Virus record (IMG/VR): IMGVR_UViG_3300020037_002893
DNA: 64,000 nt
Reading direction: 5' to 3' (one strand)
Source of the DNA: an uncultured virus (IMG/VR IMGVR_UViG_3300020037_002893)
Taxonomy: Duplodnaviria; Heunggongvirae; Uroviricota; Caudoviricetes
Shown: positions 2,379 through 24,851 of the stretch, piece after piece
Position numbering within the stretch: position 1 is the stretch's first letter
How the letters are laid out: every line of letters begins with the position of its first letter
Position numbers and translations under genes: made by a program
Notes under the pieces: model-generated
Told to the model about the DNA's origin: nothing
What the model saw: the letters and a program-made list of their open reading frames with translations, nothing else
Database searches by the model: none

Positions 2379-2419
2379 AGCGTTCCCCCATTCTACGAGG
2401 AATGCCTCGTTGGTCAACC

Positions 2420-2623: not shown

Positions 2624-2663
2624 AACGGTGGGTAAAATTTGCAAACGTTTTCAAACAGAGGGG

Positions 2664-5637: not shown

Positions 5638-5696
5638 GGCTGTTTACGGTGTTGAATTAGAGAGGAAGGAAAAACGAAACATGGAAGGGAGCGGTA

Positions 5697-6002
5697 TCAC
5701 TCCTCTGGGGTAGCCTCGACGACAGAAATCGTGACAGACCTGCGTGTCAGCTCATTCTTCTGCCCTAGTGTGGCAGAGAAGTTTGGGGTGACGGTAACTC
5801 CCGGAACTTTCTTCACAAGGAAGAAGTCGGTGTCGGGATCAACCCCGCTGATCTGCCCATCCGAGCTGGACCTTGCCTCCGTCACCCCCAAGGCTGCGAG
5901 GTTCTTGTCCGGGGACTTCTTCGTCACGATGGCCGTCCCTTGTGGAGTGGATGATGCTGTGAACTCTGCCTCTGCTTTCTTTGGTGCGGGTTGGGTAGCC
6001 AT
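5697..6002 (-). CDS. hypothetical protein
   Basis: ORF from MATQPAPKK; tiles between the protease and 5164..5637. Confidence 0.5.
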   Translation of the reverse strand: MATQPAPKKAEAEFTASSTPQGTAIVTKKSPDKNLAALGVTEARSSSDGQISGVDPDTDFFLVKKVPGVTVTPNFSATLGQKNELTRRSVTISVVEATPEE

Positions 6003-6027
6003 GTCGATAGGTTGGTTGGTTGATGTG

Positions 6028-8547: not shown

Positions 8548-9417
8548 CTATTCCTCCGAGGCACCCGCACCTTGCTCCGGGCCTCCGTTGAATCCAGAGT
8601 CAAAGAAGTAAGAAGGCACGATGACCCCCGTGTGATTGATGTGGAACTGCAACTGTCCCATATCCTGTGTGGGGACGTTCTGAATATTGCAAGTGGGCAC
8701 CCCCTTATAGGTAGGGATTCCGGGTTCTATTGCCTTGCATCCTGAGACGGACACATGACTCACTTTTCCCTCTGCCTGTAGGACATGCCGGGTAACTGCA
8801 TCAGCAATCCTGCCTGACTCCGTGCGAACGATGGTGGCAATCCTGCTCTTGGTCATCGTGGGGAATTTCTTCCTCATATAGGCCAGCGTCTCCCTCGGGC
8901 TGTGCTGATACTGGTAGATGGATTTCCGCATCTCCCTGCTGAGCATCTTCTTCGTGTAGTCGGAGACTCCCGAGATGTTCTTGGCCACCTGGGTTCCCGT
9001 CTCTCTCAGTGCCTTATCCACTCTCCACTTGCTTGGCTTCTTCCCATCAATCAACACGGAGTAACCCCTATGCAGGCGCGTGGCTGGAACCTTCACCGCT
9101 GGGAAGGCTTTCATCTGGACGGACAGCTTGAACTCTGACGTGGCTTGATTAATCGCAGCCTGCCATAAATCCTCCGTGCTTTCCTTCCTTGCCTTGGACA
9201 AATTATTGACCAACTCAAAGAGACGATTTTCAAGGGTGCGAAACTCGGCAACCAGCATTGCCGTGTAATTTCTCTGCATGGTAAGCTTCGCGCTCTGCCA
9301 CTCCCTCACCCAGTCACGCAGGAGCCATCGACCGGCAGGCCCATTGAATGCCTCCTGCGTCCATCCTCCGGGAGGAAAATATATCGGGGGTTCTTCCATA
9401 CATTCAAGGAGTGGCAC
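8548..9417 (-). CDS. head morphogenesis protein (SPP1 gp7 / Mu F-like)
   Basis: SRIATIVRTE motif and C-terminal H.NH.G; lies between portal and protease. Confidence 0.7.
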   Translation of the reverse strand: MPLLECMEEPPIYFPPGGWTQEAFNGPAGRWLLRDWVREWQSAKLTMQRNYTAMLVAEFRTLENRLFELVNNLSKARKESTEDLWQAAINQATSEFKLSVQMKAFPAVKVPATRLHRGYSVLIDGKKPSKWRVDKALRETGTQVAKNISGVSDYTKKMLSREMRKSIYQYQHSPRETLAYMRKKFPTMTKSRIATIVRTESGRIADAVTRHVLQAEGKVSHVSVSGCKAIEPGIPTYKGVPTCNIQNVPTQDMGQLQFHINHTGVIVPSYFFDSGFNGGPEQGAGASEE

Positions 9418-10285
9418 CGCTTCCGACCTGCTCCGGGCGTCCGGTGTATTCGGCTGAGCTCACCTCGATATTGACCCCCGCGAAGACCGTGCCGCTCGGA
9501 TCGTCGAACACCTTCCCGTAGGCGCGAAGATAGCGAATGGTTCCATCCACACGTATGATTCTGAAAACGGCCTCGTATTCTCCGCGCTCTGCTACGCACT
9601 TGTTGACCACTGCATTAAGCCAAGGGAGATCATCAGGATGGACCCTGCGTGAAAATGATCCGTAGTCCAGCACTTCTTCGCCCCCGACCTCGAAGAAGTC
9701 CTTCATCCGGGAGTCCCAGATAAGCTCGTCCTTGTCCACTTCCCACCACCACACGCCGACATGCGCGAGGTTAAGGGCAATGTCCATAATCTTGGACCGA
9801 GTGGTGATATTGTCCACGGGGGTAATGATGGCGAGGGCTCCGTCCTTTGCCCAGATAACCGTGTTGACTACCTGCTGGGTAGTCCCATCCTTCTTCTTGA
9901 CCTGACAAAAAATCTGCCGGAGCTGCCCACCGGAATCCCCTTCAATATCCCTGGCTCTGCTGTATGATGCCTTGTGTGACGCCACGTAAGCCTCTGGCAT
10001 GAGGACTTCCTCCGGGAGTTTTCCAATAAGCTCCTCGACGGTGTAGCCCGTAAAGGTAAGCACAGCAGGAGTGACCGTCTCAATCTTACCATCTGCGTCA
10101 AGGGTCAGAACGGCGCTATCGGACCCAACCAGAATGGAGCGAATCAATGTGTTCTGCCGGATGGCGCTCTCTGCCTTGTTCTGTTTACCTTGGATGATGT
10201 ATCCTAAAAAGGAGAGGAGAAGCACGGCTAGTCCATATAAGGTGATGGATATTGCTTTTCGGTAGTGACCTAAATCGAGGTGCAT
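9404..10285 (-). CDS. membrane-anchored tandem PAS-domain protein with no output domain
   Basis: N-terminal TM; PAS (DAVL.LD.DG.I...TGY..EELIGK...KKDG); PAS_3-like (VGVWWW......WD...VHPDD...FRI.R.DG.IRY). Confidence 0.85.
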   Translation of the reverse strand: MHLDLGHYRKAISITLYGLAVLLLSFLGYIIQGKQNKAESAIRQNTLIRSILVGSDSAVLTLDADGKIETVTPAVLTFTGYTVEELIGKLPEEVLMPEAYVASHKASYSRARDIEGDSGGQLRQIFCQVKKKDGTTQQVVNTVIWAKDGALAIITPVDNITTRSKIMDIALNLAHVGVWWWEVDKDELIWDSRMKDFFEVGGEEVLDYGSFSRRVHPDDLPWLNAVVNKCVAERGEYEAVFRIIRVDGTIRYLRAYGKVFDDPSGTVFAGVNIEVSSAEYTGRPEQVGSGATP

Positions 10286-10764: not shown

Positions 10765-13281
10765 CTACCTATTCCTGCGGCCCCGCTCCACCTTGCCTGG
10801 GTTCCCAATACTTCTCTGGACAGCATCAAGAGCATTCTGTGAAGGACCATCCTGCCCGGACATCTCCAGAGGAATCCGAGACTGATCCACGTAATAACCA
10901 TCGAGAAGTGGATTGTCATTGTCCTTCGCAAGTCCCATTGCCTCTCGAAGTTCATTCAGCGTCATTCCACCCATCTTGACCAAGCCCTCGTAATCGAGAA
11001 AGGTCTGCTCCACATCAATCAGGCCGGATAGCTCGTAGGATAGACGTTGCCCCGGATCGAACGCTTGGAACAGGGAGCGGTTTCCCTGGCTGTTGATCTT
11101 ACCAACAAGAATGTCCAGCAAAGGAACGATCTCGTATTTGCGAAAGTTAATCTCGTCCAACCTGGCCGTGTTGTGAGTGACAATCCCGCTGGCGATAAAA
11201 TTATGGTTCTTAATTGTGGCAAGGTCATAAACTAGCATCTTCCCAAGGTATTTGATGGCTCTCACCTTTTGAACCCCGAACCCTTTCGGGAGAGTAAAGC
11301 CCCTGGGTAACTTGTAAGCAATTGGGATTCCTTTTCCCAGCTTACCTCCCTTGGTTTCAGACTTGGTCAACCTGTCCAGCTTTTTAGGATGGCGCAAAGG
11401 AATCTTTTTATTTTCAGCAAGGATGCCTAATGTGAACCGATAGGATTTTTCCTCCCCGTAGTTAGTGGACTGTTCGCACAGAGCCAAATTGCAGGAGGGT
11501 ATCCCCATGGACCAAAGAAGCTGGCGGAAGCCCTCGGCCAGGCCTCGATTAGCCACTGAGAAGGTAATACTACCTCTCTTGGCTACGTGACCATCCGAAT
11601 CAATAAGCCCTGCGGCGAACTCCATCTTCAAGGCGTAAGGGAGCGCGAATACCCACTCTGGAATACTCTTCTCTCCGCTCCGTCCCCCAAGACCGGCAAT
11701 CACCATATTACGAGCGAACTCTGCGGAGTTAAAACGAATGGAGGTCCGGCATTTGCTTGGGTTGAAACCGAACCCTTTACGAAAGGCATCCGCTACAGTG
11801 TCTTGATAACCTTCTGTCTCATGCGTGGCGATAGTGAAGCCCCCAATACGTGAGCGAGTTAGGCTGGCCCCACTCCCGTCGCCAAGGTATTGACCAAGGG
11901 CATAGGCCGCTTCTCGATCATCTAGCACTGGGAGAGGGATGGTCCCGACCCCTTGAGGTAGAGAATCTAGGCAAACCACCATATCTCCCACGGAGATTTC
12001 GTCCATTCGTCGATACTCAAGCTCCGCCTCTACTCGGACCCCATTGCGCCCGGTTCCTCCAGTCCTTTTAACGCAGAGAACTGGGTGATTATCCGATGCT
12101 CTCAAAGACCGACTGTCCGTCTTGATCTCAAGAATCTCCGCCTCCGGCTGCTCTATGATCGCCTCCACGGGCACCGTGATAGCTCCTTCGATCGGATCAA
12201 ACTGAACGATCTCATCTCCAGTTTCAAGCTCCTCAATAGGAACTGGACCTCTCAAGGTAGTAACCATCTCCCCAGCCGGAAGGCACGCGTAGTTGGCCGC
12301 GTCCTTGATCCCAGCGAGGGAAAGAGGGACTCCATGATTCGTGAAGATTTGCTCCACGGACCATTTCTCCCGTTCAAGGGTTTCCATCTCCGAGCTGGTA
12401 AGCCCGAGACGTAGATACTTCCACGCGCCGGGAAGCATGACTGTCTTCCCGGCATTGCTGGCCCCGGAATATTCCACCTGCCACCATTTTTTCATCTCTC
12501 CCCAAGTTTCATCTTCGATGTCGGCCAGCTCTGCTGGAGCTTCCTGCGAGCCTTCGTAGGTAAGGACGCCGGAAGGCATGGCCCCGTTCTTGAGAAACTG
12601 CTTCTCATAATCATTCCTCCCTACGAAGCCTGTGTAAAGATCGCGGCTGGGTTCGATGTCTCCCATCCCGCTAATCAAAGAGGCTGGATTCGGCCTGCGA
12701 AAATAGAGGATTTCCTCCGGCTGGTATTCAATCTGCCTGCCGTTGATTCGATAGATGAACTTCGTGATGCGTTCCGTTTCCTCTGCTACCGGGAAAACGT
12801 ATTGCGGAAGGAGCGGGTAAATGTGCTTCGGCCTTCCCTTGGCGTCGATCTCGTCAAGGTGCCAGTAAGCCTCCCCGGTCAGCTTCATGTGAAAAACCCA
12901 AGTGTAGAGAAGCTCCTCCAAGGAGTCCCACTCGTTGGGGTTATTCAGGAGAGCTAACCCTTGCGAGTTTTCCACGTCCACGTCCTCTCCTTGGGCATCC
13001 TTGCCCATTGCCTTGAAAACTGTCGAGAGGAGGATGGACGCAGTGACGTGGCACGCTCGAAAAGTCGCCCAGACTTTTTGGTTCCCCATCTTGAGATAGG
13101 ATGCCTTATCGGCTAAGCCCATAAGGGGAATATTGTGAATCGTCTCGATAAACCTGTGAGCCTTCTGGTGAGGGATAGGCACGGCCAACGCAGCTTCCTT
13201 CGCATTGGCGAACAAAGCCATCGGCTGGCGCTTCACTTCAAGGAGTTGTTTCATCGTGGACATGCCGTGAAGGTGCGACAA
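10765..13281 (-). CDS. portal protein (HK97-like) containing an intein
   Basis: LL..PN, GEAYW, PL.P..V, F.KNGA.PSGVL, G..NAGK..L and MT.NE.R..MGL motifs; follows the terminase. Confidence 0.92.
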   Translation of the reverse strand: MSHLHGMSTMKQLLEVKRQPMALFANAKEAALAVPIPHQKAHRFIETIHNIPLMGLADKASYLKMGNQKVWATFRACHVTASILLSTVFKAMGKDAQGEDVDVENSQGLALLNNPNEWDSLEELLYTWVFHMKLTGEAYWHLDEIDAKGRPKHIYPLLPQYVFPVAEETERITKFIYRINGRQIEYQPEEILYFRRPNPASLISGMGDIEPSRDLYTGFVGRNDYEKQFLKNGAMPSGVLTYEGSQEAPAELADIEDETWGEMKKWWQVEYSGASNAGKTVMLPGAWKYLRLGLTSSEMETLEREKWSVEQIFTNHGVPLSLAGIKDAANYACLPAGEMVTTLRGPVPIEELETGDEIVQFDPIEGAITVPVEAIIEQPEAEILEIKTDSRSLRASDNHPVLCVKRTGGTGRNGVRVEAELEYRRMDEISVGDMVVCLDSLPQGVGTIPLPVLDDREAAYALGQYLGDGSGASLTRSRIGGFTIATHETEGYQDTVADAFRKGFGFNPSKCRTSIRFNSAEFARNMVIAGLGGRSGEKSIPEWVFALPYALKMEFAAGLIDSDGHVAKRGSITFSVANRGLAEGFRQLLWSMGIPSCNLALCEQSTNYGEEKSYRFTLGILAENKKIPLRHPKKLDRLTKSETKGGKLGKGIPIAYKLPRGFTLPKGFGVQKVRAIKYLGKMLVYDLATIKNHNFIASGIVTHNTARLDEINFRKYEIVPLLDILVGKINSQGNRSLFQAFDPGQRLSYELSGLIDVEQTFLDYEGLVKMGGMTLNELREAMGLAKDNDNPLLDGYYVDQSRIPLEMSGQDGPSQNALDAVQRSIGNPGKVERGRRNR
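11170..12285 (-). mobile_element. 372-aa intein with in-frame LAGLIDADG homing endonuclease, in the portal gene
   Basis: Starts CLPAGEMV; block B ASDNHP; LGQYLGDG and AGLIDSDG motifs; ends VYDL...HNFIASGIVTHN followed by Thr. Confidence 0.95.
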
Positions 13282-13335
13282 ATAAAGGGGGTGTCAACCG
13301 GGACGATTTGAAAACGTTTGCAAACTGGAAAAGAT

Positions 13336-14928
13336 TTAATCAGTCTCCTCTTCCTCCTCTTCCTCCTCCTCGTCCTCTTCCTGTCCGTCCCCTTCCCTAG
13401 CTTCCTTGCTGAACTTATTTCTGGCCAAGCGTCCCAGGGAGCGTGTGACCATCTCGAAGGCAATGCTGACTGCGTCAACTTGGTCATCATGTTCTCCCAC
13501 GGGAAACACTTCCAGCTCGTCGAGAAATTTCTTGTTCCATGCACCCTCCACAAGGAAGACTCGCTTGGCTTCCACAAGCACGAACCACGACATGGCGCGA
13601 GTCAGTTTATCAACTCCCTTCTTCGGGTTCTTCTTCCTGACTCTTACCTTGCCCCGCAGTGCCTCCTTGATGTCGTGATACCCGAGGGCGAAGCCTGCCA
13701 CGCCTTCCACGCCTATTAAGCGAACCGGATGGGGCTCTCCCTCCTCGATGTCATCCTCTGCAATCGTGACTAGACGCTTTCTCATCTTGGGCCACACCAG
13801 CTTGTGATGCGCTATGTCCATGATGTAAAGCTCCTGCCGTGCCACGTCCCATGCCAGCTTAGCTCCTGCGGAAAAATCATTCTTCTTCTTCACCTCCGCA
13901 GCCAAGTCCCATCCTCTTGCGCAGATGAGCCCCGACGTGGGAACCTGTGAAAGAGGGATCTTGATGAAGTCCTCTATGCTAACCTGACCCCCGTGCGCTG
14001 GGCGTGGCCTTCCCTGGAACTGGCTTTGCCACTCGTAATCCGGGAGGGTTGATCTCTTCGTCTTGAGGAACTTTGATGTTCTCCCAAGCTCCGGGCACAG
14101 GGGTTCCCCTTGCCCTCTCCCTAACGGGTCCGGCTCTTTTGGTGTGGGTTCCGCTATTGCCGGAAAGTTGTGAGCCTTGAACACCTCTCCGAGTTCCCCA
14201 AGCAGGGTAAGCTCCTTGACTCTTTCTTCTGAGCTGAGAAACCCTTGAAGATCCTCCGGGTGCCACCTTGTCCCGACCATGAAGACCTTGGCTTCCGGGG
14301 ATAGACGGGTGACACAGTCGGCAAAGAACCATCGAAGGACTTTCTTCCTCAGATGTTGGCTCTCCACCTCTTCACGTCCGGGGTAAATGTCATCTCCGAT
14401 GAACCAGTCAACTCGTCTACCGACAAGCTTCTTCCCAAAGGACACAGCGCGAAGCCTGCTCCCGTTCGTGGTTCCCCAATTCGTGATTCGGCACAGCTCC
14501 TCATCCATCCGAAGGCCAGGAAAGACCTCCTGATACCACGGGTGGCTGACATACCTCCTGGACTCCATCGAGGTTTCCTCCACCAGGGGGTAATGATACG
14601 ATGCAAGCCCTAGTTGGATGCCTGGACGATACCCCATGAGCCAAGCCATCGCGGCTCGAATCAACACATCCGTCTTCCCATGCTGAGGAGGAGCGGACAA
14701 CATCTGGTTGTTCGGTGTCTTTCCCTTGGCAGTGTCATCCACAATCTGAGCGAGTGCTTCATGGAACTTTCCAAGCACGCGGAAGGACTCGGGGCGAAGT
14801 CCGAAGAGAGTATAGAAGGCCACAAAGTCCTTGCCCGCGATGTTGACCAACTCCTTGAACAGACTACCAAGGACAAGGCTGGCATCCTCCATCACATCGG
14901 AGCGCCATTGACCGTCAGTATTCGTCAT
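13336..14928 (-). CDS. terL: terminase large subunit
   Basis: Walker A APPQHGKT, Walker B FIGDD, GTRWH..D, nuclease GWDLA and HDDQVDA; poly-acidic tail. Confidence 0.93.
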   Translation of the reverse strand: MTNTDGQWRSDVMEDASLVLGSLFKELVNIAGKDFVAFYTLFGLRPESFRVLGKFHEALAQIVDDTAKGKTPNNQMLSAPPQHGKTDVLIRAAMAWLMGYRPGIQLGLASYHYPLVEETSMESRRYVSHPWYQEVFPGLRMDEELCRITNWGTTNGSRLRAVSFGKKLVGRRVDWFIGDDIYPGREEVESQHLRKKVLRWFFADCVTRLSPEAKVFMVGTRWHPEDLQGFLSSEERVKELTLLGELGEVFKAHNFPAIAEPTPKEPDPLGRGQGEPLCPELGRTSKFLKTKRSTLPDYEWQSQFQGRPRPAHGGQVSIEDFIKIPLSQVPTSGLICARGWDLAAEVKKKNDFSAGAKLAWDVARQELYIMDIAHHKLVWPKMRKRLVTIAEDDIEEGEPHPVRLIGVEGVAGFALGYHDIKEALRGKVRVRKKNPKKGVDKLTRAMSWFVLVEAKRVFLVEGAWNKKFLDELEVFPVGEHDDQVDAVSIAFEMVTRSLGRLARNKFSKEAREGDGQEEDEEEEEEEEETD

Positions 14929-15511
14929 CGTCGTAATGATCGTCTTCCTCTTCCCTGTCTGATGCCCGCCTCTCAGGAGCCTGCACAAGAGGAGAGTCGG
15001 CATCAAGGGTGGATTCCCCTGAGTCTTTGAGGCGCTGTGCTAGGCGAGCAGCCAACGCAGCCAAGTAGCCAAGAGGAACCTTCTCTGCAATCTCCGTGAT
15101 GGAAGGCCCTCGGACCTGTATGGGGCCACCTCCGGCCCCAGTCAACTCGGTCTGCGTAATTCCATACCCTCTATCCTTCCCCTTTGCTGCCATGATGATG
15201 TGGGCGGCTCTAACGTTGCCCTGCGAGGCTGGCTCAATAAGCCCCTTGAACTCGATATGGTCGAGTGCCTTGTCCTTCGCAAGAGCTACCCTTCTAGCGT
15301 AAGCCGGGTATCGGTGCATCCAGTCGTGGTGCGTCCTCTGTGGGAGCTTCGCCATCTCCAACGCAAGGTATAGACATCCCCCTGTCTTGCGGAGAGCGGC
15401 ACACATGGCACGCATCCTATTCTTGCGATCAGTGTAAGACTGCGCATATTGCGACTCGTCCCTCTCCGCCTGGGTAGGAGGCCCCAACTTAATCTTTCTC
15501 CTTCCAGCCAT
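14915..15511 (-). CDS. terS: terminase small subunit
   Basis: HTH-like N-part, GKDRGY and ELTG.GGGPI motifs; overlaps the terL start. Confidence 0.75.
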   Translation of the reverse strand: MAGRRKIKLGPPTQAERDESQYAQSYTDRKNRMRAMCAALRKTGGCLYLALEMAKLPQRTHHDWMHRYPAYARRVALAKDKALDHIEFKGLIEPASQGNVRAAHIIMAAKGKDRGYGITQTELTGAGGGPIQVRGPSITEIAEKVPLGYLAALAARLAQRLKDSGESTLDADSPLVQAPERRASDREEEDDHYDDDEY

Positions 15512-15516
15512 GGTAG

Positions 15517-16194
15517 CTATTCCTCCCTTTCAAGTATCCACCCGCAGAACTCTCCCATCTGAAAAAACTTGCGTGTAGGCGGGAATATTACACTAAAATC
15601 CAGCTCGTTCAAGGGTCGTTGATACCCTGCGAGGGACAGTTCTTTCCGTAAAATATCCTCTGGAGGGGTTCCAGACCTAAGTTTCCAGTCCATAGTCAGT
15701 CTACGCAGTGCAGTTCCCACATACCCTGGAGGCGTGTTAATTTTATCCACCACCACCAGTGCCCCTCCTGGTTTAATCTTCTGTGTAAGCCCACGAAGCC
15801 ACGTTAGCCTTTCTCCGGGTGGCATGAACATTAGAACAAGAAAACACACAGCAAAATTAAATGGCTGGTAGGCATAGGAAAGGGCATCCGCCACCACTAT
15901 CGTTCCCGGCCCATGATATAGACTAGCCATCTCAGCTTCCTTCTCAATGGAAGTAAGTGATGCCTCCCTGTTTCTCACCGTGGACTCCAGGCATCTTGCT
16001 ATGTTTCCTGTGGAAGCTCCAATGTCATAAACAATTCCATTGGTAGGAATATAGTGTCTCCCGAAATGAGCCACGGACTCTGTCACTAAATCATACCAGG
16101 GAAGCTGCTCCCTTACATGGGCGTCGAAATTCTCAGCCACCTTGGTGTCGGCAAAGGTCCAACTTTCTGGTATCCAGCTTTTCTTGTCATTCAT
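15517..16194 (-). CDS. CmoA-like class I SAM-dependent enzyme
   Basis: W.F...VA..FD.HVR.Q.PWY, VYDIGASTG, L.F, GGALVV.DK and K...G....I..K pattern as in carboxy-SAM synthase CmoA. Confidence 0.75.
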   Translation of the reverse strand: MNDKKSWIPESWTFADTKVAENFDAHVREQLPWYDLVTESVAHFGRHYIPTNGIVYDIGASTGNIARCLESTVRNREASLTSIEKEAEMASLYHGPGTIVVADALSYAYQPFNFAVCFLVLMFMPPGERLTWLRGLTQKIKPGGALVVVDKINTPPGYVGTALRRLTMDWKLRSGTPPEDILRKELSLAGYQRPLNELDFSVIFPPTRKFFQMGEFCGWILEREE

Positions 16195-16198
16195 AACT

Positions 16199-17560
16199 TC
16201 AATCTTTGGTAAGGTATCCGAATGTCTGTCTAATCACAGAGTTGTAAAACCGTGTGGGACTCTCACATAAAAGTAGCGCCTTACTTGCGGACCCTGACGC
16301 ACCTTGGAACGTCTCCTTGTCCCTTCGTATAATATAGTCCGGCACAACCCCTGCCGCAGCCTGCTTTAGTAGCCGCTTACCCAGAGGAGACGTTGACCCA
16401 CCCAAATTAACAGCCTCTTCCACCAGCTCCCTGTCCATAAATGGCAACCTACATTCAACGCCATGCGCCATGAACGCCTTGTTGCATCTTATGAAGTTTC
16501 CCCTGCTCATCTTATCCAAGAGTTTTTTCCTAAGATTAACCACCACCTTGTCCGGTTTTTTGGATGCTTGGATACAAAAATTTCCATACCCTCCGAATAA
16601 TTCGTCTGCCGCCTCGCCGGACAGACATGCCTTAAATCCATCAGAGGATATTCTGCTGGCCAGAGGAATACACATGGCCGCAATCTCCACTTGAGCCTTG
16701 CTTGGGATCTCAATACACTTGGCAGCTTCTACAAACGCAGCTTTACTCAAACTCACCTTGACCTCATTCAGGGGAACTTCCCACTCAGAGCAGAGTCTCC
16801 GAGCAGCCTCTAAATCACACGACGAGGGATCTTCATAAGCAGTATATGCTACCACGTTAGGATGCGAAGCCCTTGCCAATCCAAGGATAAGGGAGGAATC
16901 AAGCCCTCCTGAAATTAGACAACATACTGGAGCGTCTGCATCCATACGCGCACGCACCCCCCTATCGAGGTGGCTTAGTATACCCTGTGGTCCTGTAAAC
17001 CCACTATTCGCATCCGGCAGCGTATACCACCTCTCCCATGTCCCCTTATTAAGGTTGAATGAACAACCTGGAGGAACAGCCAAGGGCATCACCCCATGGG
17101 GGAATGCTTTACGCTCACTCCCCCATAGAAATCCTTTACGAACCTTTGCCACATAGAGAGGTATCTTCCCGAACCTATCTCTCACTAACCATGATTGACC
17201 TCTGTGCGTCCAGCAGAAAGAGAACATCCCCTCTACCATGTGCAACCCCCTTAATCCCTGTGTGTCCAGTATCCTCAGAAGAACTTCCGTGTCCCCTGTG
17301 GTGTCCCAATTCCCTCCCAGCATCTTCCTTAATTCCCTGAAATTCCATACCTCACCATTGAAAGTGAGCGTGGACGAAGGCGACTTGAATGGTTGCGCCG
17401 AAGCAGAGGTAAGGTCCACGAGAGAAAGTCTCGCATGGCCATGAACTACACTCCCGTCAGTGTGTATACCCTGCCCATCTGGCCCACGATGCTTGATTTT
17501 CTCAAGCATCTGTTCAGTCAGATTTTGGTCAGAAAAGTTATTCCCTACTATCCCGCACAT
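16199..17560 (-). CDS. asparagine-synthetase-like glutamine amidotransferase / ATP-dependent amide ligase
   Basis: MCGI, HRGPD, NGE..N, RDRFG.IPLY, SGGLDSS, SGE.ADELFGGY and E.RLPF.D motifs. Confidence 0.92.
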   Translation of the reverse strand: MCGIVGNNFSDQNLTEQMLEKIKHRGPDGQGIHTDGSVVHGHARLSLVDLTSASAQPFKSPSSTLTFNGEVWNFRELRKMLGGNWDTTGDTEVLLRILDTQGLRGLHMVEGMFSFCWTHRGQSWLVRDRFGKIPLYVAKVRKGFLWGSERKAFPHGVMPLAVPPGCSFNLNKGTWERWYTLPDANSGFTGPQGILSHLDRGVRARMDADAPVCCLISGGLDSSLILGLARASHPNVVAYTAYEDPSSCDLEAARRLCSEWEVPLNEVKVSLSKAAFVEAAKCIEIPSKAQVEIAAMCIPLASRISSDGFKACLSGEAADELFGGYGNFCIQASKKPDKVVVNLRKKLLDKMSRGNFIRCNKAFMAHGVECRLPFMDRELVEEAVNLGGSTSPLGKRLLKQAAAGVVPDYIIRRDKETFQGASGSASKALLLCESPTRFYNSVIRQTFGYLTKD

Positions 17561-18762
17561 CTGTCCAAGATTCCTTTCACATGATTGGCAATGTGCATCA
17601 TCATCACCGGAGGAACAGACCTACCAAGCCGTTCCCACTGTTGGGAGAAGCTCCCGGTTAATTGGAAATCATCAGGGAACGCACAAAGTCTCTTTAACTC
17701 TATTATGTAGAATTTTCGTTTTTCTGTAGGGTGTGTTACTCCTGCTTTATTTCCTGATCCATGAGACGCGCATATAGTAGGGCATGGACGGTCCCTGTGT
17801 GATCTTGTCAAGTTAATATATTTATCCGAGCCTTCCCCCTCTTTCAAGTTGTCCCACTCCTTACCAATGGCATACCTCTCCATAGAACATGCGCGAAGTT
17901 CTTCCTCTGTGGGGACGGGGACACCTATATGGTGATGTCCCATGGAGTTGGCCGTAATTGTTGGGGCTGTGGAAGATCCAACATCCACCGTCTTTACTGC
18001 ATATTTCCCCTTCTGATCGTGAATATACGCATCCTTGATATACCCCCTGTTAAGCCAGGGGAGCGCGTCTGCTACAGTGTGGAAATAGGGCAAGGGGGAT
18101 GGGTGGGATGGCTCTATGCCCATATCGTTCCTTACTCCCACAAATATAAGCCGCTGCCTTGATTGTGGCACTCCAAGCCACTTGGCGTCTAACACGCGAG
18201 CAGAAACTCTATACCCGCAGTCTTGGAGTCTTTTGAGAATCTCCTTGAAATACCCCTTGGCCACCCCTTTCACCAAGCCGCTGACATTCTCGGCAATGAA
18301 TGTCTTTGGTTGGAGTCCTTCCAGTATTCTGGAATATTCAAAAAATAAATCATCCACCCTCTGTTTAGAATCAGAATAGCTCTTCACTGTTCCCCATCCA
18401 TCACTTCGCTTCCCTACTGTGGAGAACGCGGCACAAGGGGGCGACCCATCAAGTAGGTCAATTTCTCCGGCATTTTTTCCTAGGATGTCCAGTATCTCCT
18501 TTGGTTGAATCTTCCTAATGTCCCGCTTGTCCAGTATCGTGCTCGGATGATTCGCCACATAGGTATCCTGAGCTGCCGGGATAAACTCATTGGCCCATGC
18601 GACGTTAAATCCAGCCATGCGATACCCCAAACAGGAACCCCCACATCCTGAAAATGTAGATACCACATCATATCCATTTTTGGGAAGAGCTTCAATCTCT
18701 GCCATAGATGGTATCTTATAGGGCGGTTTGGTTGCTGCTGTCTTATCTTCCTGTGTTTTCAT
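17548..18762 (-). CDS. DNA cytosine-C5 methyltransferase family protein
   Basis: FSGCGG, GSPPC, ENV.G, PQ.R.R and C-terminal FPDDF...Q..G.SVPP motifs. Confidence 0.92.
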   Translation of the reverse strand: MKTQEDKTAATKPPYKIPSMAEIEALPKNGYDVVSTFSGCGGSCLGYRMAGFNVAWANEFIPAAQDTYVANHPSTILDKRDIRKIQPKEILDILGKNAGEIDLLDGSPPCAAFSTVGKRSDGWGTVKSYSDSKQRVDDLFFEYSRILEGLQPKTFIAENVSGLVKGVAKGYFKEILKRLQDCGYRVSARVLDAKWLGVPQSRQRLIFVGVRNDMGIEPSHPSPLPYFHTVADALPWLNRGYIKDAYIHDQKGKYAVKTVDVGSSTAPTITANSMGHHHIGVPVPTEEELRACSMERYAIGKEWDNLKEGEGSDKYINLTRSHRDRPCPTICASHGSGNKAGVTHPTEKRKFYIIELKRLCAFPDDFQLTGSFSQQWERLGRSVPPVMMMHIANHVKGILDRCAG

Positions 18763-18968
18763 CAGTTTGCTAAGCAAGGAATACTGTGAACAGTTCACCC
18801 CCCCCTATGCCTCCAGCACAGATGCACGGAGACGGTTCAGTCAACAAATTGGTGTCCTTATATTCTCCGGTAACAGGAGTTTTAAGCCGAAGCACTGGAA
18901 CGAAATACTGTCCTGTAGCGTCGTCTTTCATCACAATTTCATAATGGGATCTCCCCTATAAGCCCCAC

Positions 18969-19700
18969 TCATTGTGCTTTCTTGATATGGGCGTTACCGC
19001 TCCACTCGTATGCGCACTTGGGACACTGGTAATGCACCTCGATGTCGTCATCGAACTCTGGAAACTCCTCCGGGGCTCCCTTCTGGGTATTCCCATTCCT
19101 GTCGTCACCCTCTGGTGTAGAATCATCGAGAAGGCAATCTGTCTCCTCAAGGGAGAAGCCAGAAAGTCCAATATCAAAGTCCTCCCCGATACTTTTCAAC
19201 TCTGCAAGGAAGGTAGCCTGTCCCTGCAAGTCTGTCGTGCCCATGCCCCGGTTGGCCGCGAGAAGTCTCGCCAAGTGGGTAGGCTCATCATAATCGACGA
19301 CGACAACCATGGCGTGAGTGTAAAGCCCCTCTTGGAGCATGACCTTTTTTCTGAGATGACCGGAGACAAGCTGACCGTTTCGGACGTTCCACACCATCGG
19401 ATCGAAATAGTCATGCTCCAGGGACTTCTTGAGCGTATCCCAACGAGGTGTCCCCGGCTCCGGGTGCTTCCTCACTTCCTCGTTTCTGGGATGGTCATCC
19501 AGATCAAGGAGGGACATTCGCTTCACGTCAAGGGAGGCAGTCTTCTCACCTTTCCCATCACCGGAGAAACCCTTCGGGGCTTCAAGCGTCTTCCCAGCCT
19601 TGGATGCGAGAGGAACTGTCTTCCGCCTCTTCGTGGCAGTTGGCGCCGTGGTGGGTTGCGGCAATGCCGCACTGTCTTGTGTCTTCCGTCGCTTTACCAT
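18969..19700 (-). CDS. ParB/Srx-like domain protein with C-terminal zinc ribbon
   Basis: HPRN..H, L..SL, P.VWN...LVSGH.R and L.AN motifs; CPKC.YEW. Confidence 0.8.
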   Translation of the reverse strand: MVKRRKTQDSAALPQPTTAPTATKRRKTVPLASKAGKTLEAPKGFSGDGKGEKTASLDVKRMSLLDLDDHPRNEEVRKHPEPGTPRWDTLKKSLEHDYFDPMVWNVRNGQLVSGHLRKKVMLQEGLYTHAMVVVVDYDEPTHLARLLAANRGMGTTDLQGQATFLAELKSIGEDFDIGLSGFSLEETDCLLDDSTPEGDDRNGNTQKGAPEEFPEFDDDIEVHYQCPKCAYEWSGNAHIKKAQ

Positions 19701-19765
19701 AGTGGCGACAGTCTACGCCACGGAACTTTTAACGCAATGAAAAATCAGCAGACAAACAAACGCGA

Positions 19766-20527
19766 TTACTTTGGAAGGACAATCCTGCGGAGCTTTGGAG
19801 CCTCTCCAGGCTTGCGTAACGGGACGACAGGGAACCCCTCCGTATCCGAGTTCGCGTTACAACTCGAATCGACGACGCCTGCCACGACAATCCCCGTGCT
19901 TGTGTAGTCTTCCATGTTGGCCATTTCACGTAAAGTAACAGATGTCATCGGGAAGTCATAGCGTGGGGCCGACATGGAACAAGCCACGACAACCCCCTCA
20001 AATCCTCCTATCGTCATTCGTTTACCAGTCATATGTCTTACCAAATCCTCAGTATTGACACGGGCTTCACTACTTGGAATAGGGCTTATCAACTCTGCCT
20101 GAACGCTGGGGCCGCTGAGGGCACTGTAAAAGTTCCCTTCCACGTCCTGGACTACCCTCGTCTCATTCGACCTTGTAACCGATTGAAGTAGGAACTCCGG
20201 GCAAACGGGTGCCTGTGACGCCGCTAAGCCGAGACTTGATGAGAGGTAGAGAATATTGGACAATCTTCCTGCCGCATCCTCACTAGACATCCCTCTTAAC
20301 ACGTAGGCCAGATGCTCCATACCTGATACCCTGAAAAATCGCTTTTCATAGGTTATGGTATTATCGGGAGTGGCAAAGAGATCCTCCTCGGATGAATAAA
20401 CACTACGAAATGGATCTTCGCGTAGGACCGCTATAGTCGGAGGCAAGGGCGGAGCAACACCTATGCGCTGCCCATCCTTCGGACCTCCTATGAATAGGAT
20501 GCCCCCATCAGCACTACTCGTTGGCAT
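19766..20527 (-). CDS. hypothetical protein
   Basis: LFIGGPKDG N-terminus; ends RRIVLPK. Confidence 0.55.
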   Translation of the reverse strand: MPTSSADGGILFIGGPKDGQRIGVAPPLPPTIAVLREDPFRSVYSSEEDLFATPDNTITYEKRFFRVSGMEHLAYVLRGMSSEDAAGRLSNILYLSSSLGLAASQAPVCPEFLLQSVTRSNETRVVQDVEGNFYSALSGPSVQAELISPIPSSEARVNTEDLVRHMTGKRMTIGGFEGVVVACSMSAPRYDFPMTSVTLREMANMEDYTSTGIVVAGVVDSSCNANSDTEGFPVVPLRKPGEAPKLRRIVLPK

Positions 20528-20939
20528 AGACTTGTTTCATGGTGATGCCGTAACGGGACATGAGGATGGCGGAAATCATCGGCTCCGGGTTCCCGTCGAG
20601 AAGGAACTCATCATAAGGGGACCGTGCGGGGTAGCCACCATCTCGTCTATCACAAGACGCCCCTAGCGATTTAAACAAAGGACACGAACCGCACCCTACC
20701 CCGGCTGGCTTGAGATAGTGAAGGCAAAAGGCGCAAGTGCTACAGTCTACGCTCATTGAATATGGTATATCGTTGTATTTCCCACGTATGCTAGCGTAAA
20801 AACGACGTAGGCCATGCCTGCGAAGATTCTCTTCCCTCAGTCCGATCCACTTCCGCAGAACGTGGTCGGAGGCTTCCTCCTCCGATGTGTCACATGCCTC
20901 CGTTGGCATGAACTCCTCTTTCCAAGATGTCAGGCTCAT
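20514..20939 (-). CDS. hypothetical Cys-rich protein
   Basis: CAFC...C.SCPL...C motifs. Confidence 0.55.
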   Translation of the reverse strand: MSLTSWKEEFMPTEACDTSEEEASDHVLRKWIGLREENLRRHGLRRFYASIRGKYNDIPYSMSVDCSTCAFCLHYLKPAGVGCGSCPLFKSLGASCDRRDGGYPARSPYDEFLLDGNPEPMISAILMSRYGITMKQVYANE

Positions 20940-21253
20940 ATAAGGGTGGTGGGTTTTGGGAAGTGTGTAGGCATACTCATGAGTCAGTTGGGTTATGGTT
21001 TACCGGGGCATGTTCCTCGGTGGCTTGGGTCGGTAGTCTTGAAAATGAAAGCGAGGCTGGATGAACCTGGGCTCCGGCTTCCTCGGCGGGTTGAACCCTC
21101 GGGCCTTCGTGACCGGAGGAGGGCAGTAATCATGCTGGAACTGGATTGTCGCGTATTGCGCTATAGCGACACTGGTGTTCGCCTCCCCCATGTAGGTCTT
21201 CCCACAAGAGGAGGACGCGAAGATATTCACAGTGCGAGCTAAATTTAGATTTC

Positions 21254-21418
21254 TCACTTTATGACCTCCTTCACATCACGCAGCAGCTTGATCATTGGCA
21301 AAGGGTTTCCTTCTTCACGCCAGGCATCGTATTGCTTACAGCACGGAGCATCTGCCTTCGCCTCGGGTGATGTTGCAGGCGTGAGGTAGTGTTCAGCTTT
21401 CCAAGTTTCCAGGCTCAT
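21254..21418 (-). CDS. short internally deleted paralog of 20514..20939
   Basis: Hand-translated MSLETWKAEHY...YDAWREEGNPLPMIKLL matches both ends of 20514..20939. Confidence 0.55.
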   Translation of the reverse strand: MSLETWKAEHYLTPATSPEAKADAPCCKQYDAWREEGNPLPMIKLLRDVKEVIK

Positions 21419-21491
21419 ATAAGTGAGGTGTTACTAAGTAAGATAACCCTTTTTTGGGCAAAGTAAAACGGCAAGAATTTTGCAAACGTTT

Positions 21492-21863
21492 TCAAATCTC
21501 AGGGTATCGAATCATGTCCCCGTAGGTCCAGCTCTTGAAACCAAACGAGGCGTAGAATTTGCGGAGGCTGGCCATGGACATAACCTTCCTGTCCTGGGAA
21601 ACAGGCGTAAGGTAAACCGCCCATCCCTTTTCGTCTGCAAGGCTGCACAGGCTCTCCATCAGCAGGGTTCCCACTCCCTTGCGTGTCTGCGTTGCCATTA
21701 CCTTGATATACGAGAGATGAAACTTGTCTCCCATCCTTGCATACCCCTCCAGCGTCCCGACCAGCTCCCCGCCAAGGAAGGCATGGATGGCGTAGCAATG
21801 CCTCCACACACCGACCTCCTTGGATACTCTGATTTCGAGCGAGCTGTCCAACGTCATGCTCAT
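21492..21863 (-). CDS. GNAT-family acetyltransferase
   Basis: I.V...TRKGVGTLLM and L.KFY..FGF motifs. Confidence 0.85.
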   Translation of the reverse strand: MSMTLDSSLEIRVSKEVGVWRHCYAIHAFLGGELVGTLEGYARMGDKFHLSYIKVMATQTRKGVGTLLMESLCSLADEKGWAVYLTPVSQDRKVMSMASLRKFYASFGFKSWTYGDMIRYPEI

Positions 21864-22243
21864 GTCTTCGGCAGGGTTATGATTCTTTTCTTCTTTGTCT
21901 CTTCCGGCTGCATAGGGGGTTTCGGCTTCGGCTTGGCCGGGATCGTATTGCATACAAGGACAAGCAAATCTCTCATCTTCCAAGCAGAGGACTCCGTAAT
22001 CTCCAACTCAACTATCAGCTGTATCATATTCCAGAAGGCATGCCCCTCCGGTGTGTCTGCCCAGACAAAAGAAGCGCCAAGGGAGCCCCCGGGGGTTAAT
22101 GGCTTACTTTCATCATTGCCCTTCTCTCTTACTCTCGCTTCCCTGTTGATCTTCACCCTGCGTAGTAGTTCCACCGCATTGTGCTTGGAGAGGAACTCTC
22201 GCAACGGAGCGGATACCCTGTCTGTCTCGATGTCAAAGTTCAT
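21860..22243 (-). CDS. hypothetical protein (F.W..T.EG..FW family)
   Basis: GASFVWADTPEGHAFW; basic C-terminal motif. Confidence 0.55.
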   Translation of the reverse strand: MNFDIETDRVSAPLREFLSKHNAVELLRRVKINREARVREKGNDESKPLTPGGSLGASFVWADTPEGHAFWNMIQLIVELEITESSAWKMRDLLVLVCNTIPAKPKPKPPMQPEETKKKRIITLPKT

Positions 22244-23586: not shown

Positions 23587-24285
23587 TCACTGCGGTCGGT
23601 CATACGAATAATTACTGTTCGCAAGATGCTGTCGCACGGACGCCAGCACCTGAGCCCCGACCTTCGGATGCACACAGTTGCGGAGGATCTGCGCGGGGCA
23701 GTGATTCTTGCCGTAGTAGATGTTTTCCGGGTAGTGGATACCCAGCCAGTCCATCATTGCCTGTTTTCCGTCCAGATTGCATTTGTTGATGAAGTTCGTC
23801 AGGCTTGGGATTTCCATGACCCGCACGTCGAAGTTTGACCAGAAGAGATGCCGCCCCACCTTTTGCGCGGGGATCAGCGGCTCATAGTAGGGCGTGACGT
23901 TTTCCACGATCCAGGGTCCGGTGAAGTAGTGCCGCAGGAAGATGATTTCTTGATACAGCATCATGTCCGGGTATCGCTTCAGGGCGTGCCGCGTGACGCG
24001 TGCCATCTTGGAGTGCGTCTGGCATGGTGGAGAACTCCATATAAAATCGAAGTCCGCGAAGTTGTCCAGCAGGTAGGCGTGGGCATCCCCGACGATCACG
24101 GTGTCTTGCGGGTGCAGTCGTTGGTAGACTGCCGCGATTCGTGGGTCCATTTCCACGGCGGTCACTTTCACATTCTCCCAGTCCTTGCGGTTTCCGCCCA
24201 AGCCCGCGAACAGGTTCAGCACCCGGAGAGGATGAACAAGTGCCTGACCCCAACGGGCAGGGCGGCTTTCTTTCGACGTTTTCAT
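23587..24285 (-). CDS. short DNA cytosine-C5 methyltransferase
   Basis: VLNLFAGLGG, SSPPCQ, ENV and LRNCV motifs. Confidence 0.85.
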   Translation of the reverse strand: MKTSKESRPARWGQALVHPLRVLNLFAGLGGNRKDWENVKVTAVEMDPRIAAVYQRLHPQDTVIVGDAHAYLLDNFADFDFIWSSPPCQTHSKMARVTRHALKRYPDMMLYQEIIFLRHYFTGPWIVENVTPYYEPLIPAQKVGRHLFWSNFDVRVMEIPSLTNFINKCNLDGKQAMMDWLGIHYPENIYYGKNHCPAQILRNCVHPKVGAQVLASVRQHLANSNYSYDRPQ

Positions 24286-24380
24286 GGTGACTAGAGATTC
24301 TGGTGCTTCAACGCCACACTCGCGCCGAGAACCAGGCGGTGGTTTTGAGATCATAGTCGGTGACGAGGGCCGGGTCTTTT

Positions 24381-24851
24381 TCATATCTTGGTTTCCTTCC
24401 TTGTTGGTAGGACTATCCTCCTGCCTGTGCGGTATGATGCTGACTTTGCAAATTCAATAAAATATTCTTGATACCATTTCTTCTCACCCCTTGCTGGCTC
24501 AGGCTTCTCCTGTCCACGTCTGGCAAGGGCGTATTCCGGCAGCTCGAATGATTCTGGCTTAACAGCGGGTAATCCATAGACCAGTGCCCATACTTTGTCC
24601 TGTTCGGTCCAGGACTCTAGGGATATTTGATGCACACACATCCAGAATAAATCCCCCTGCATTGATACTGCCCAGGAACCCCAATATGTCAGTGCACTGG
24701 ACAGCTTTTTAACACTGACCGTTATAGGGGGGTTGGGATTCGTTGCTGACAATCGCATCGCGGCCTCGTAAAGCAGTGGATACTTCGGAAGGAAGTGCTT
24801 CCGAAATAACTCTGGTATCGGATAGGGGTTGCGTTCTTCTTCCATAGTCAT
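24381..24851 (-). CDS. hypothetical protein
   Basis: W....QG..FW motif; RRIVLP near C-terminus. Confidence 0.55.
   Translation of the reverse strand: MTMEEERNPYPIPELFRKHFLPKYPLLYEAAMRLSATNPNPPITVSVKKLSSALTYWGSWAVSMQGDLFWMCVHQISLESWTEQDKVWALVYGLPAVKPESFELPEYALARRGQEKPEPARGEKKWYQEYFIEFAKSASYRTGRRIVLPTRKETKI

Follow-up and report, generated by a model that had tools for sequence, protein, structure and literature searches.

What does a phage do with a ParB-like protein, a cytosine-C5 methyltransferase (C5-MTase), an asparagine synthetase B (AsnB)-like protein and a CmoA-like protein that are encoded side by side next to its terminase genes? The question is raised by a stretch of 64,000 nucleotides from an uncultured virus of the Caudoviricetes (IMG/VR IMGVR_UViG_3300020037_002893), referred to here as the window, in which the four genes lie on the minus strand immediately 5' of terS and terL (Table 1). 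The original prediction had proposed a pathway from carboxy-SAM (Cx-SAM) via 5-carboxymethylcytosine (5cxmC) to its amide, referring to a report of such a modification in a phage. The report exists: Yang et al. (Nat Commun 2025, PMC12783734) describe the CmoA-CmoX-CmoY system of Synechococcus phage S-B43, which comprises the same three linked enzyme types, and mention a ParB-type gene nearby in many contigs, as is also found here. The cassette is therefore a further example of a system for cytosine carboxymethylation that was described in 2025, and not a new system. What our analysis would add is a tail motif of the ParB-like protein and its predicted docking on CmoX.

Organization of the locus

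Table 1. Genes and gene remnant of the cassette and the adjoining terminase genes (positions in the window)
Feature	Position	Strand	Remarks
Large terminase (terL)	13336-15006	-	Terminase_6C, 1.1e-07
Probable small terminase (terS)	14915-15511	-	198-aa ORF
CmoA-like protein, putative carboxy-SAM synthase	15517-16194	-	225 aa
AsnB-like protein, candidate glutamine-dependent CmoY-type amide ligase	16199-17560	-	453 aa
C5-MTase, predicted CmoX-type DNA cytosine-C5 carboxymethyltransferase	17548-18798	-	416 aa, GTG start
Disrupted remnant of a cmoX N-terminal extension	18815-18964	-	Similarity to P0269
ParB-like protein	18969-19700	-	243 aa

The ORFs and their coordinates bear out the four-gene set beside the terminase as originally described, including the 13 bp (17548-17560) that the C5-MTase and AsnB-like genes have in common and the 4 bp (16195-16198) that separate the AsnB-like from the CmoA-like gene; the probable small terminase ORF is found 5 bp beyond the end of the latter. 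The AT-richness originally noted for the three enzyme genes is borne out (GC 0.482, 0.496 and 0.476). Together they form the block with the lowest GC content (15517-18798, 0.485) when the 64-kb window (mean 0.537) is scanned in 608 sliding windows of equal size, and they have a GC3 of 0.48-0.50 as compared to 0.61-0.65 in the neighbouring genes, but it does not extend to the ParB-like gene, whose GC content of 0.549 is accompanied by values of 0.568 and 0.552 for terS and terL, respectively. The window encodes a second C5-MTase (23587-24384), and in a Pfam scan of the 67 window ORFs we noticed no cmoB-like partner.

We surveyed the most closely related loci in IMG/VR, 80 in all; besides one near-identical contig, the sample contains several that are redundant. 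Motif X of the transferase carries Arg in 73 loci, Arg after a non-Gly residue in two and Asn in five; the second C5-MTase of the window likewise has Asn at this position. Where at least 1500 nt of downstream sequence were available, a CmoA-like gene was present in 71 of 72 Arg-type loci and in both of the odd Arg loci, but in none of the five Asn-type loci. A glutamine-type ligase is encoded in 21 of the 80 loci, with the order X-Y-A in all 20 of these in which the CmoA-like gene was found. The complete order ParB-X-Y-A recurs in loci L008 and L009 and in Streptomyces phage TurkishDelight, and several unrelated phages also carry the cassette just 5' of the terminase genes.

The predicted CmoX-type transferase

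The C5-MTase matches the DNA_methylase family (PF00145, E 2.5e-58), and its best solved relative is SpCmoX (8YF3, E 6.1e-68), followed by HaeIII (1.8e-24). It is 36% identical to the S-B43 enzyme and contains S119-P-P-C122, ENV, QSRQR and, in motif X, Arg393. S119-P-P-C122 aligns with S95PPC98 of SpCmoX, and R393 (ERLGRSVPP) aligns with R350 (ERVGRMVPP). Ordinary C5-MTases have Asn at the latter position. In SpCmoX, R350 binds the carboxymethyl group of Cx-SAM, which is the sole cofactor that this enzyme accepts, and the R350N variant is inactive (PMC12783734). The protein very probably writes 5cxmC from Cx-SAM. Its variable region is unlike that of SpCmoX, so that the GC target site is not to be assumed for it.

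The apparent 170-bp spacer 5' of cmoX contains the remnant of an N-terminal extension, which shares 82% identity over 50 aa with the intact extension of the homologue P0269. Two lesions disrupt the remnant: a single in-frame TAG, and a frame change of one base in a G8 run (C8 on the plus strand, 18798-18805) directly next to the GTG start of cmoX. Many homologues have no extension at all. Elsewhere, gene callers choose an alternative start at Met13, which gives a protein of 404 aa.

The CmoA-like protein and the residue at the Arg199 position

Whether judged by family, by PDB match or by fold, the CmoA-like protein matches CmoA best, yet it scores far below the curated cut-offs of the bacterial CmoA equivalog models TIGR00740 (51.5 bits, E 1.1e-13; cut-off 193.3) and NF011995 (41.4; cut-off 285). 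It matches E. coli CmoA (EcCmoA, 4GEK) with 1.4e-11 and phrog_4752 with 1.7e-42. Its AF2 model (pLDDT 90.4) has 4IWN, 4GEK and 1IM8 as top folds (TM 0.78-0.84), and whereas the other methyltransferases CysG and BelI are nearly as near in fold (TM about 0.77), EcCmoA and YecO are nearest in fold and sequence. Most of the SAM contacts of EcCmoA are shared, and from the list of Byrne et al. (2013, PMC3663124) the SAM-derivative contacts Y39, D62, G64, S66 and F137 are retained. However, the protein has Phe for N132 and Glu for R199, lacks the Gln of the TLQF motif and has a C-terminus shorter than those of EcCmoA and SpCmoA, with the latter of which it shares 22% identity.

The substitution at R199, through which EcCmoA holds the carboxylate in a salt bridge (PMC3663124), had been spotted by eye in the original prediction and is reproduced by both HMMER and MAFFT, which align it with E185. 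It had also been taken as a possible sign of a different SAM analogue or chemistry, and here the comparison with the S-B43 enzyme speaks otherwise. SpCmoA, aligned here as a sequence whose ends match the cloning primers of the paper, has the same Lys-Glu at the columns of K184 and E185 (HMMER and MAFFT), and it makes Cx-SAM with a kcat of 2.33 per s (PMC12783734). Among ten CmoA-like proteins of phages whose genes lie close to one for a C5-MTase-like protein or an MTase, the R199 column holds Glu in six (SpCmoA and five others), Ala in two, Ser in one and Arg in just one. Since the validated SpCmoA also has Glu in this column, Arg199 is not a defining feature of the phage enzymes. Together with the position of its gene beside that of CmoX, the similarities to CmoA make the protein a probable carboxy-SAM synthase.

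The predicted CmoY-type ligase

The AsnB-like protein combines an Ntn glutaminase domain, in which Cys2, HRGPD, RLSLVD, NGEVWN and GDTEV are all present, with an AsnB-type adenylating domain, whose PP-loop SGGLDS, SGEAADE and NKA align with those of E. coli AsnB (EcAsnB; 28% identity over 439 aa, E 3e-43). It matches Asn_synthase (7e-40), GATase_6 (7.1e-28), GATase_7 (2.7e-23) and phrog_16728 (5.8e-116), but scores 224.1 against the asparagine synthetase B model NF006949, with a cut-off of 499, and 256.7 against TIGR01536 (asn_synth_AEB), just below the cut-off of 267.1. Its C-terminus is about 100 residues shorter than that of AsnB; lasso-peptide and macrolactam cyclase models match it weakly, and its PDB matches include a hydroxyamidotransferase.

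To the proven ligase SpCmoY the protein is barely similar (E 4e-4 over 155 aa), and in sequence comparison SpCmoY lacks the glutaminase domain. The report on S-B43 shows ligation of glycine, giving 5gcxmC; for the second-largest ligase cluster, which is represented by A0A7T0Q3R0 and has a glutamine-hydrolysing domain, it predicts the probable use of glutamine-derived ammonia and states that no soluble glutamine-type ligase could be obtained (PMC12783734). With its intact glutamine-hydrolysing domain the ligase of the window belongs to the type predicted to use ammonia, and ammonia rather than glycine is thus the expected amine. The final base would more probably than not be the plain amide, 5-carbamoylmethylcytosine.

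The ParB-like protein and its predicted docking on CmoX

The ParB-like protein has no Pfam match even at E<=10, PF02195 included, which is weakly matched by ParB proteins of the neighbours Mcat8 and L008, but it does match phrog_620 ('ParB-like partition protein', 3.2e-18) and phrog_498 (5.3e-17). A low-complexity N-terminus is followed by a ParB/Srx-type domain at about residues 55-185 (HPRN, GHLR), with H70, N73, R77, G114, H115 and R117 invariant in the family, and the C-terminus consists of an acidic peptide and a zinc ribbon, APEEFPEFDDDIEVHYQCPKCAYEWSG (residues 209-235), a tail motif that is conserved in other phages. It is this motif, at residues 209-222, that forms the interface with CmoX in a predicted complex, which scores 0.61 as compared to 0.00 for the best of three controls, with at least 61% of contacts agreeing between runs and a partner pLDDT of at least 71. 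Of 157 solved complexes 116 reach the mark, as do 2 of 215 mismatched pairs, counts that hold only roughly here because our own alignments were used. A profile search for solved structures related to the ParB-like family came up empty, and the predicted complex is therefore unlikely to echo a similar known structure.

The distribution of the motif supports the view, implied by the original prediction, that the ParB-like gene is part of the module. It occurs within 1500 nt 5' of the transferase in 63 of the 74 related viral loci that extend 300 nt or more upstream, where the median distance from its end to the CmoX match is 27 nt. It is all that the protein has in common with TurkishDelight gp122 and, in the CmoX homologue P0267, is fused in two copies to the N-terminus. 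Of 47 upstream ORFs that carry the tail, only 30 match the ParB profile itself, and in Pseudomonas phage PaBG a ParB-like gene without the motif adjoins cmoX. The motif also precedes three of the five Asn-type (ordinary 5mC) transferases and is thus a feature of the MTase clade, not of carboxymethylation. From the predicted complex and the conservation of the motif, the ParB-like protein is likely a partner or activator of CmoX; that it binds CmoX is slightly more probable than not.

A model for such a role is offered by the phage thymine dioxygenases, which need a ParB-family protein from an adjacent gene for activity on dsDNA in a manner specific for the cognate pair, although a stable complex could not be trapped (PNAS 2026, PMC13229309). 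There too, a ParB-family gene stands beside that of a post-replicative base-modifying enzyme. Different from the present case however, this enzyme is an Fe/2-oxoglutarate dioxygenase instead of a C5 transferase, and its ParB proteins carry a C-terminal dimerisation domain instead of an acidic peptide and a zinc ribbon.

Comparison with related systems and alternative explanations

Compared to S-B43, in which the gene order is A-Y-X, the order here is X-Y-A, and the host is non-cyanobacterial; relatives of the window bear Verrucomicrobiota MAG names. Closer in layout is the annotated cluster of the high-GC actinophage TurkishDelight (MW291017), whose genes 121-125 encode, in the same order, two ParB-like proteins, the second with the same C-terminal tail motif, a C5-MTase (53% identity) whose motif X has Arg, a glutamine-amidotransferase/AsnB-like protein (gp124; 35% identity, which shows the same type only) and a CmoA-like protein (29% identity) that has Ala at the R199 column and Arg one position on. 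This cluster adjoins the terminase genes across the genome ends. With respect to the E. coli enzymes, the CmoA-like and AsnB-like proteins keep the fold and the two-domain architecture, respectively, but both fall under the curated equivalog cut-offs, and by its context the ligase would, unlike AsnB, act on DNA.

But could the ligase of an otherwise identical CmoA-CmoX system add another amine or amino acid, or its glutaminase domain have another role? Glycine is, after all, the substrate of the sole CmoY assayed, several ligase clusters have distinct pockets and unknown amines (PMC12783734), and the cyclase and hydroxyamidotransferase matches recall other chemistries of the AsnB superfamily. 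We nevertheless consider this unlikely, as Cys2 and the glutaminase motifs used by EcAsnB are all present and the similarity to AsnB is strong over the full length. In this superfamily, the Cys nucleophile is typically missing from members that work without glutamine. Considerably less probable still is that Glu185 reflects a different SAM analogue and hence installation of a different group. While the invariance of K184, E185 and R193 in 46 aligned family members and the additional divergence of this subfamily at N132 and the TLQF motif would fit such a change, the activity of SpCmoA and the variability of the R199 column do not, and moreover the partner transferase has kept its carboxylate-binding Arg and the ligase needs a carboxylate.

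Finally, annotation gene by gene would yield an ordinary 5mC methyltransferase, an asparagine synthetase of metabolism and a methyltransferase acting on RNA or small molecules as unrelated neighbours, a reading to which the near-threshold TIGR01536 score and the PHROG name 'tRNA methyltransferase' for phrog_4752 lend some appearance. It has scarcely any probability, however, given Arg rather than Asn in motif X, the confinement of the CmoA-like gene to Arg-type loci in the survey, the conserved order and tight coupling of the genes across distant phages, the low score of the AsnB-specific model and the want of a noticed cmoB-like partner among the window ORFs. With good though not complete confidence, we read the region as a CmoA-CmoX-CmoY-type module for the post-replicative hypermodification of cytosine.

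Proposed pathway

By homology to the S-B43 system the core of the originally proposed pathway stands, with the amide step as a prediction. The CmoA-like enzyme would convert SAM and prephenate to carboxy-SAM. Cys122 of CmoX would then attack C6 of cytosine and, with the carboxylate of the cofactor held by Arg393, the carboxymethyl group would be transferred to C5, giving 5cxmC in phage DNA. CmoY may adenylate the carboxylate of this base and join to it ammonia that its Cys2 domain releases from glutamine, resulting in 5-carbamoylmethylcytosine. The ParB-like protein, as suggested by the predicted complex, the conserved motif and the one fusion, may dock on CmoX through its acidic peptide and zinc ribbon and serve as an accessory or activating subunit, by analogy to the ParB-like proteins of some phage thymine dioxygenases. 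Reading from the genes, we expect the role to be that described for S-B43, with post-replicative 5cxmC as the handle for amide formation and protection from restriction as the outcome (PMC12783734). If this is true, the modified phage DNA would be expected to resist the restriction enzymes of the host.

Organization and composition of the cassette

The gene arrangement laid out in the original prediction stands: four consecutive ORFs on the minus strand encode a ParB-like protein, a C5-methyltransferase-type transferase (CmoX), an AsnB-like ligase (CmoY) and a CmoA-like protein, the probable carboxy-SAM (Cx-SAM) synthase, and their coordinates give an overlap of 13 bp and a gap of 4 bp, as had been described (see table). 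The AT-richness ascribed to the enzyme block is likewise borne out, as it has the lowest GC among 608 equal-sized windows. Its three genes have a GC of 0.476-0.496 and a GC3 of 0.48-0.50 as compared to 0.55-0.57 and 0.61-0.65 in the neighbours, and the ParB-like gene resembles the flanks in its GC. Phage genes are found across the whole window (prohead protease, PolA, DnaB-type helicase, RecA-like protein and others). Positions 12000-22000 had no megablast match in the phage collection, and the scan of 14800-20800 revealed no excess of promoter-like sites (7 versus 6.2 expected from shuffles) and no more terminator-like sites than in shuffles (10 versus 5.3 expected, sd 2.3).

Genes of the cassette, its surroundings and other features of the window
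Feature	Coordinates	Strand	Remarks
Two-PAS-domain protein	9404-10285	minus	among head genes, in the portal/prohead protease interval; unusual site for a sensor-type domain
Portal gene with intein	10765-13281	minus	after the terminases; Phage_portal, Intein_splicing and LAGLIDADG_3 matches
Large terminase	13336-15006		Terminase_6C match
Probable small terminase	14915-15511		starts 5 bp downstream of the cassette
CmoA-like gene	15517-16194	minus	ORF, 225 aa
AsnB-like ligase gene	16199-17560	minus	ORF, 453 aa
C5-MTase gene (cmoX)	17548-18798	minus	ORF, 416 aa
Remnant of an N-terminal extension	18815-18964		broken; lies in the 170-bp "spacer" that separates cmoX from the ParB-like gene
ParB-like gene	18969-19700	minus	ORF, 243 aa
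Second C5-cytosine methyltransferase	23587-24384	minus	short (265 aa); SPPC, motif-X Asn; GC3 0.70, unlike the cassette; presumably an ordinary 5mC enzyme
Third methyltransferase-like gene	26944-27675	minus	weak RrnaAD, MTS and Cons_hypoth95 matches
Family-A DNA polymerase	41629-45399	minus	1256 aa; N-terminal uracil-DNA-glycosylase-like domain; long unmatched stretch separates exonuclease and polymerase parts
AAA ATPase, apparently split	50782-53799	minus	N-terminal part with intein start 52360-53799, GIY-YIG endonuclease ORF 51489-52487, then remaining AAA domain 50782-51492
IS4/IS5-family DDE transposase	54123-54956	plus	strand opposite to that of the cassette; lies within the phage genome
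HNH endonuclease genes	54972-55424, 55868-56497		adjoin the transposase

Transferase and ligase

The transferase matches PF00145 (2.5e-58), and by far its nearest solved structure is 8YF3, which is CmoX from Synechococcus phage S-B43 (SpCmoX; 6.1e-68, as compared to 1.8e-24 for M.HaeIII). In the S-B43 system, SpCmoA converts SAM and prephenate to carboxy-SAM, and SpCmoX places 5-carboxymethylcytosine (5cxmC) at GC sites in DNA, taking no cofactor other than Cx-SAM; it does so through Arg350, the residue found where ordinary C5-MTases have Asn in motif X (Yang et al., Nat Commun 2025, PMC12783734). Candidate CmoX proteins were recognized in the accompanying survey by SPPC together with R350, and many of the surveyed contigs also carry CmoA, ligase and ParBc genes (PMC12783734). 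Our alignment pairs S119PPC122 and R393 of the window transferase with S95PPC98 and R350 of SpCmoX. The cassette is another copy of this known system, described in print in December 2025, and holds no new principle. The pathway, in which Cx-SAM leads to a carboxymethylated and then probably to a carbamoylmethylated cytosine, had been deduced correctly from sequence alone.

The final base would depend on the ligase. SpCmoY is an AsnB-family ligase without glutaminase domain, which joins glycine to the carboxymethyl group (PMC12783734), and the window ligase is barely like it (E 4e-4). The latter combines a glutamine-amidotransferase with an asparagine-synthase domain and shares 28% identity with E. 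coli AsnB across 439 residues, though its scores fall short of the cut-offs of the AsnB equivalogs. Since the catalytic Cys2, the AsnB glutaminase motifs and the PP-loop are all present in the alignment, it belongs to the published glutamine type, the second largest ligase cluster, which carries a glutamine-hydrolysing domain and for which ammonia was suggested as substrate (PMC12783734). The representative of this type was insoluble, and for this reason its product could not be determined by its discoverers (PMC12783734). The expected 5-carbamoylmethylcytosine is so far known only as a predicted DNA base. The literature matches listed, which do not extend to subscription journals, included no report of it in DNA and a single relevant paper on CmoX, PMC12783734. 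A carbamoyltransferase that turns 5hmC into 5-carbamoyloxymethylcytosine (eLife 2021, PMC8670742) was set aside, as this route starts from 5hmC and is another pathway.

The CmoA-like protein and the Arg199 question

CmoA models match the CmoA-like protein weakly (51.5 bits versus a cut-off of 193.3); CmoA is nonetheless its top family and 4GEK its top PDB sequence match (1.4e-11). The AF2 model (pLDDT 90.4) has 4IWN, 4GEK and 1IM8 as its top folds (TM 0.78-0.84), with CysG and other methyltransferases close behind (TM about 0.77).

But does the protein make carboxy-SAM? In E. coli CmoA (EcCmoA), R199 forms a salt bridge to the cofactor carboxylate (Byrne et al. 2013, PMC3663124), and Glu185 of the window protein occupies this column, from which the original prediction had drawn the possibility of a different chemistry. 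This argument fails on SpCmoA, which is validated and likewise has Glu in this column, both by HMMER against 4GEK and by MAFFT; both ends of the aligned SpCmoA sequence match the cloning primers in the supplement of PMC12783734. Four other phage proteins share the Glu. Across ten CmoA-like proteins of phages, each encoded close to an MTase or C5-MTase-like gene, the column holds Glu in six (SpCmoA, S-CRM01, Moraxella phage Mcat8, the IMG/VR contigs L008 and L009, and the window), Ala followed by Arg in two (Gordonia phage Evaa and Streptomyces phage TurkishDelight), Ser in a Staphylococcus SPbeta-like protein and Arg in Pseudomonas phage PaBG, and Lys198 is retained in 11 of 11 aligned sequences, EcCmoA included. 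On the other side, the aligned SpCmoA contains a gap of one residue immediately before the column, and a gapless reading would bring a Lys of SpCmoA to R199. Moreover, divergence is greater in the window subfamily than in SpCmoA, with Phe at N132, VLMF in place of TLQF and a shorter C-terminus, which leaves some doubt over the exact product of the window protein. A carboxylate is what both partners of the protein, the transferase and the ligase, call for. K184, R183 or R193 might be the basic residue that replaces R199. The Arg199 rule for spotting Cx-SAM enzymes, derived from E. coli CmoA, fails for phage CmoAs, the validated one included.

Conservation of the cassette among relatives

The ParB-X-Y-A order is also found in TurkishDelight (53%, 35% and 29% identity for X, Y and A, respectively) and in two IMG/VR contigs. 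Mcat8 has ParB-X-A and lacks the ligase, and therefore plain 5cxmC is expected there. The closest CmoX relatives were surveyed in 80 IMG/VR loci, which are not independent, as they include a near-identical contig and several redundant ones. Of these, 73 contain Arg in motif X, 2 have the Arg preceded by a residue other than Gly, and 5 contain Asn; where at least 1500 nt lie downstream, a CmoA-like gene was found in 71/72, 2/2 and 0/5 of these classes, respectively. Glutamine-type ligases occur in 21/80 loci, and all 20 in which a CmoA-like gene was found have the X-Y-A order; 9/80 have a short ligase of the SpCmoY/PaBG type, and the remaining loci are without ligase.

In the window, L008/L009, Mcat8, Evaa and, across the genome ends, TurkishDelight, the cassette is immediately followed by terminase genes; the terminase of L008/L009 belongs to a different family from that of the window. 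A downstream terminase was found in 28 of the 61 IMG/VR loci with at least 4000 nt downstream. In the cultured phages Mcat8 (4445-6645; host Moraxella catarrhalis) and Evaa (1-3684; host Gordonia terrae) the ParB-like and CmoA-like genes directly precede the terminase, Mcat8 has in addition an Arg-type C5 transferase, and the cassette genes of both are annotated merely as hypothetical proteins or methyltransferases.

The ParB-like protein as a putative partner of CmoX

No Pfam family matches the ParB-like protein, even with the threshold at E<=10, and no solved relative of its own family was found by profile search; the protein is matched by ParB-like PHROGs (3.2e-18). The predicted complex of CmoX with its residues 55-243 passed with a score of 0.61, the best of three controls reaching 0.00, with contact agreement of at least 61% and partner pLDDT of at least 71 across the runs. 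The pass mark is reached by 116/157 solved complexes and 2/215 mismatched pairs, counts that are only approximate because our own alignments were used. Binding of the two proteins is supported by modelling, not shown. The predicted interface comprises residues 186-195, 205 and 209-222 (APEEFPEFDDDIEV) of the ParB-like protein, with a CPKC zinc ribbon just after, and strand 199-204 and its neighbours in CmoX.

Conservation singles out this tail motif independently of the model. The motif is all that gp122, a ParB-like protein of TurkishDelight, shares with the ParB-like protein of the window. Among the 74 loci with 300 nt or more of upstream sequence, 63 have it no farther than 1500 nt ahead of the transferase, and a median of 27 nt separates its end from the CmoX match. 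In the CmoX homologue P0267 (583 aa), two copies (acidic peptide plus CPxCxYxWSG zinc ribbon) form an N-terminal fusion, which by its sequence is the proposed docking peptide joined to its own putative target. A specific link with carboxymethylation is spoken against by the tail motif preceding 3/5 Asn-type transferases too, by the PaBG ParB-like neighbour, which is without it, and by the ParB profile, which matches only 30/47 tail-bearing ORFs. The zinc-ribbon motif occurs in only 15 of 120 ParB-domain homologues. Some phage thymine dioxygenases require a cognate ParB-like activator on double-stranded DNA (PNAS 2026, PMC13229309), which by analogy is a precedent for a putative activator role of the ParB-like protein.

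History of the locus

The remnant in the spacer between the ParB-like gene and cmoX is disrupted twice: by one in-frame TAG, and by a change of frame where a G8 run (C8 on the plus strand) abuts the GTG start. The spacer is identical in the near-identical IMG/VR contig. A poly-G tract that begins a modification gene can be phase-variable. The CmoX homologue P0269, which has Asn in motif X and is of the ordinary 5mC type, retains the intact extension (82% identity to the remnant over 50 aa). P0269 is about 90% identical to the window CmoX in the first 60 residues, 62% in the next 60 and 60% overall. This drop points to a recombination junction near CmoX residue 60-70, about position 18600. Taken with the abrupt change in GC, it suggests that recombination within the MTase gene swaps transferase cores, either on their own or along with the Y and A genes. 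Scans of viral and JGI metagenome sequences did not turn up the contig that encodes P0269, and the mosaic junction is therefore drawn from protein comparison only.

Conclusions

We tentatively suggest, as a combination that may well not hold in all its parts, that the virion DNA contains 5-carbamoylmethylcytosine, that the transferase is a two-protein enzyme with a ParB-like activator clamped on by a conserved acidic peptide and zinc ribbon, and that the docking peptide is common to carboxymethyl- and methyl-transferring members of this MTase clade. In such a mechanism the ParB-like activator would dock on CmoX by the short acidic peptide and the zinc ribbon, and one docking peptide would serve both kinds of transferase. 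The window cassette is a compact and complete example with a glutamine-dependent ligase, and another orthologue may behave better than the insoluble representative. For the ParB-type genes of many cassettes, to which PMC12783734 assigns no role, the putative docking peptide at the C-terminus provides a testable idea.
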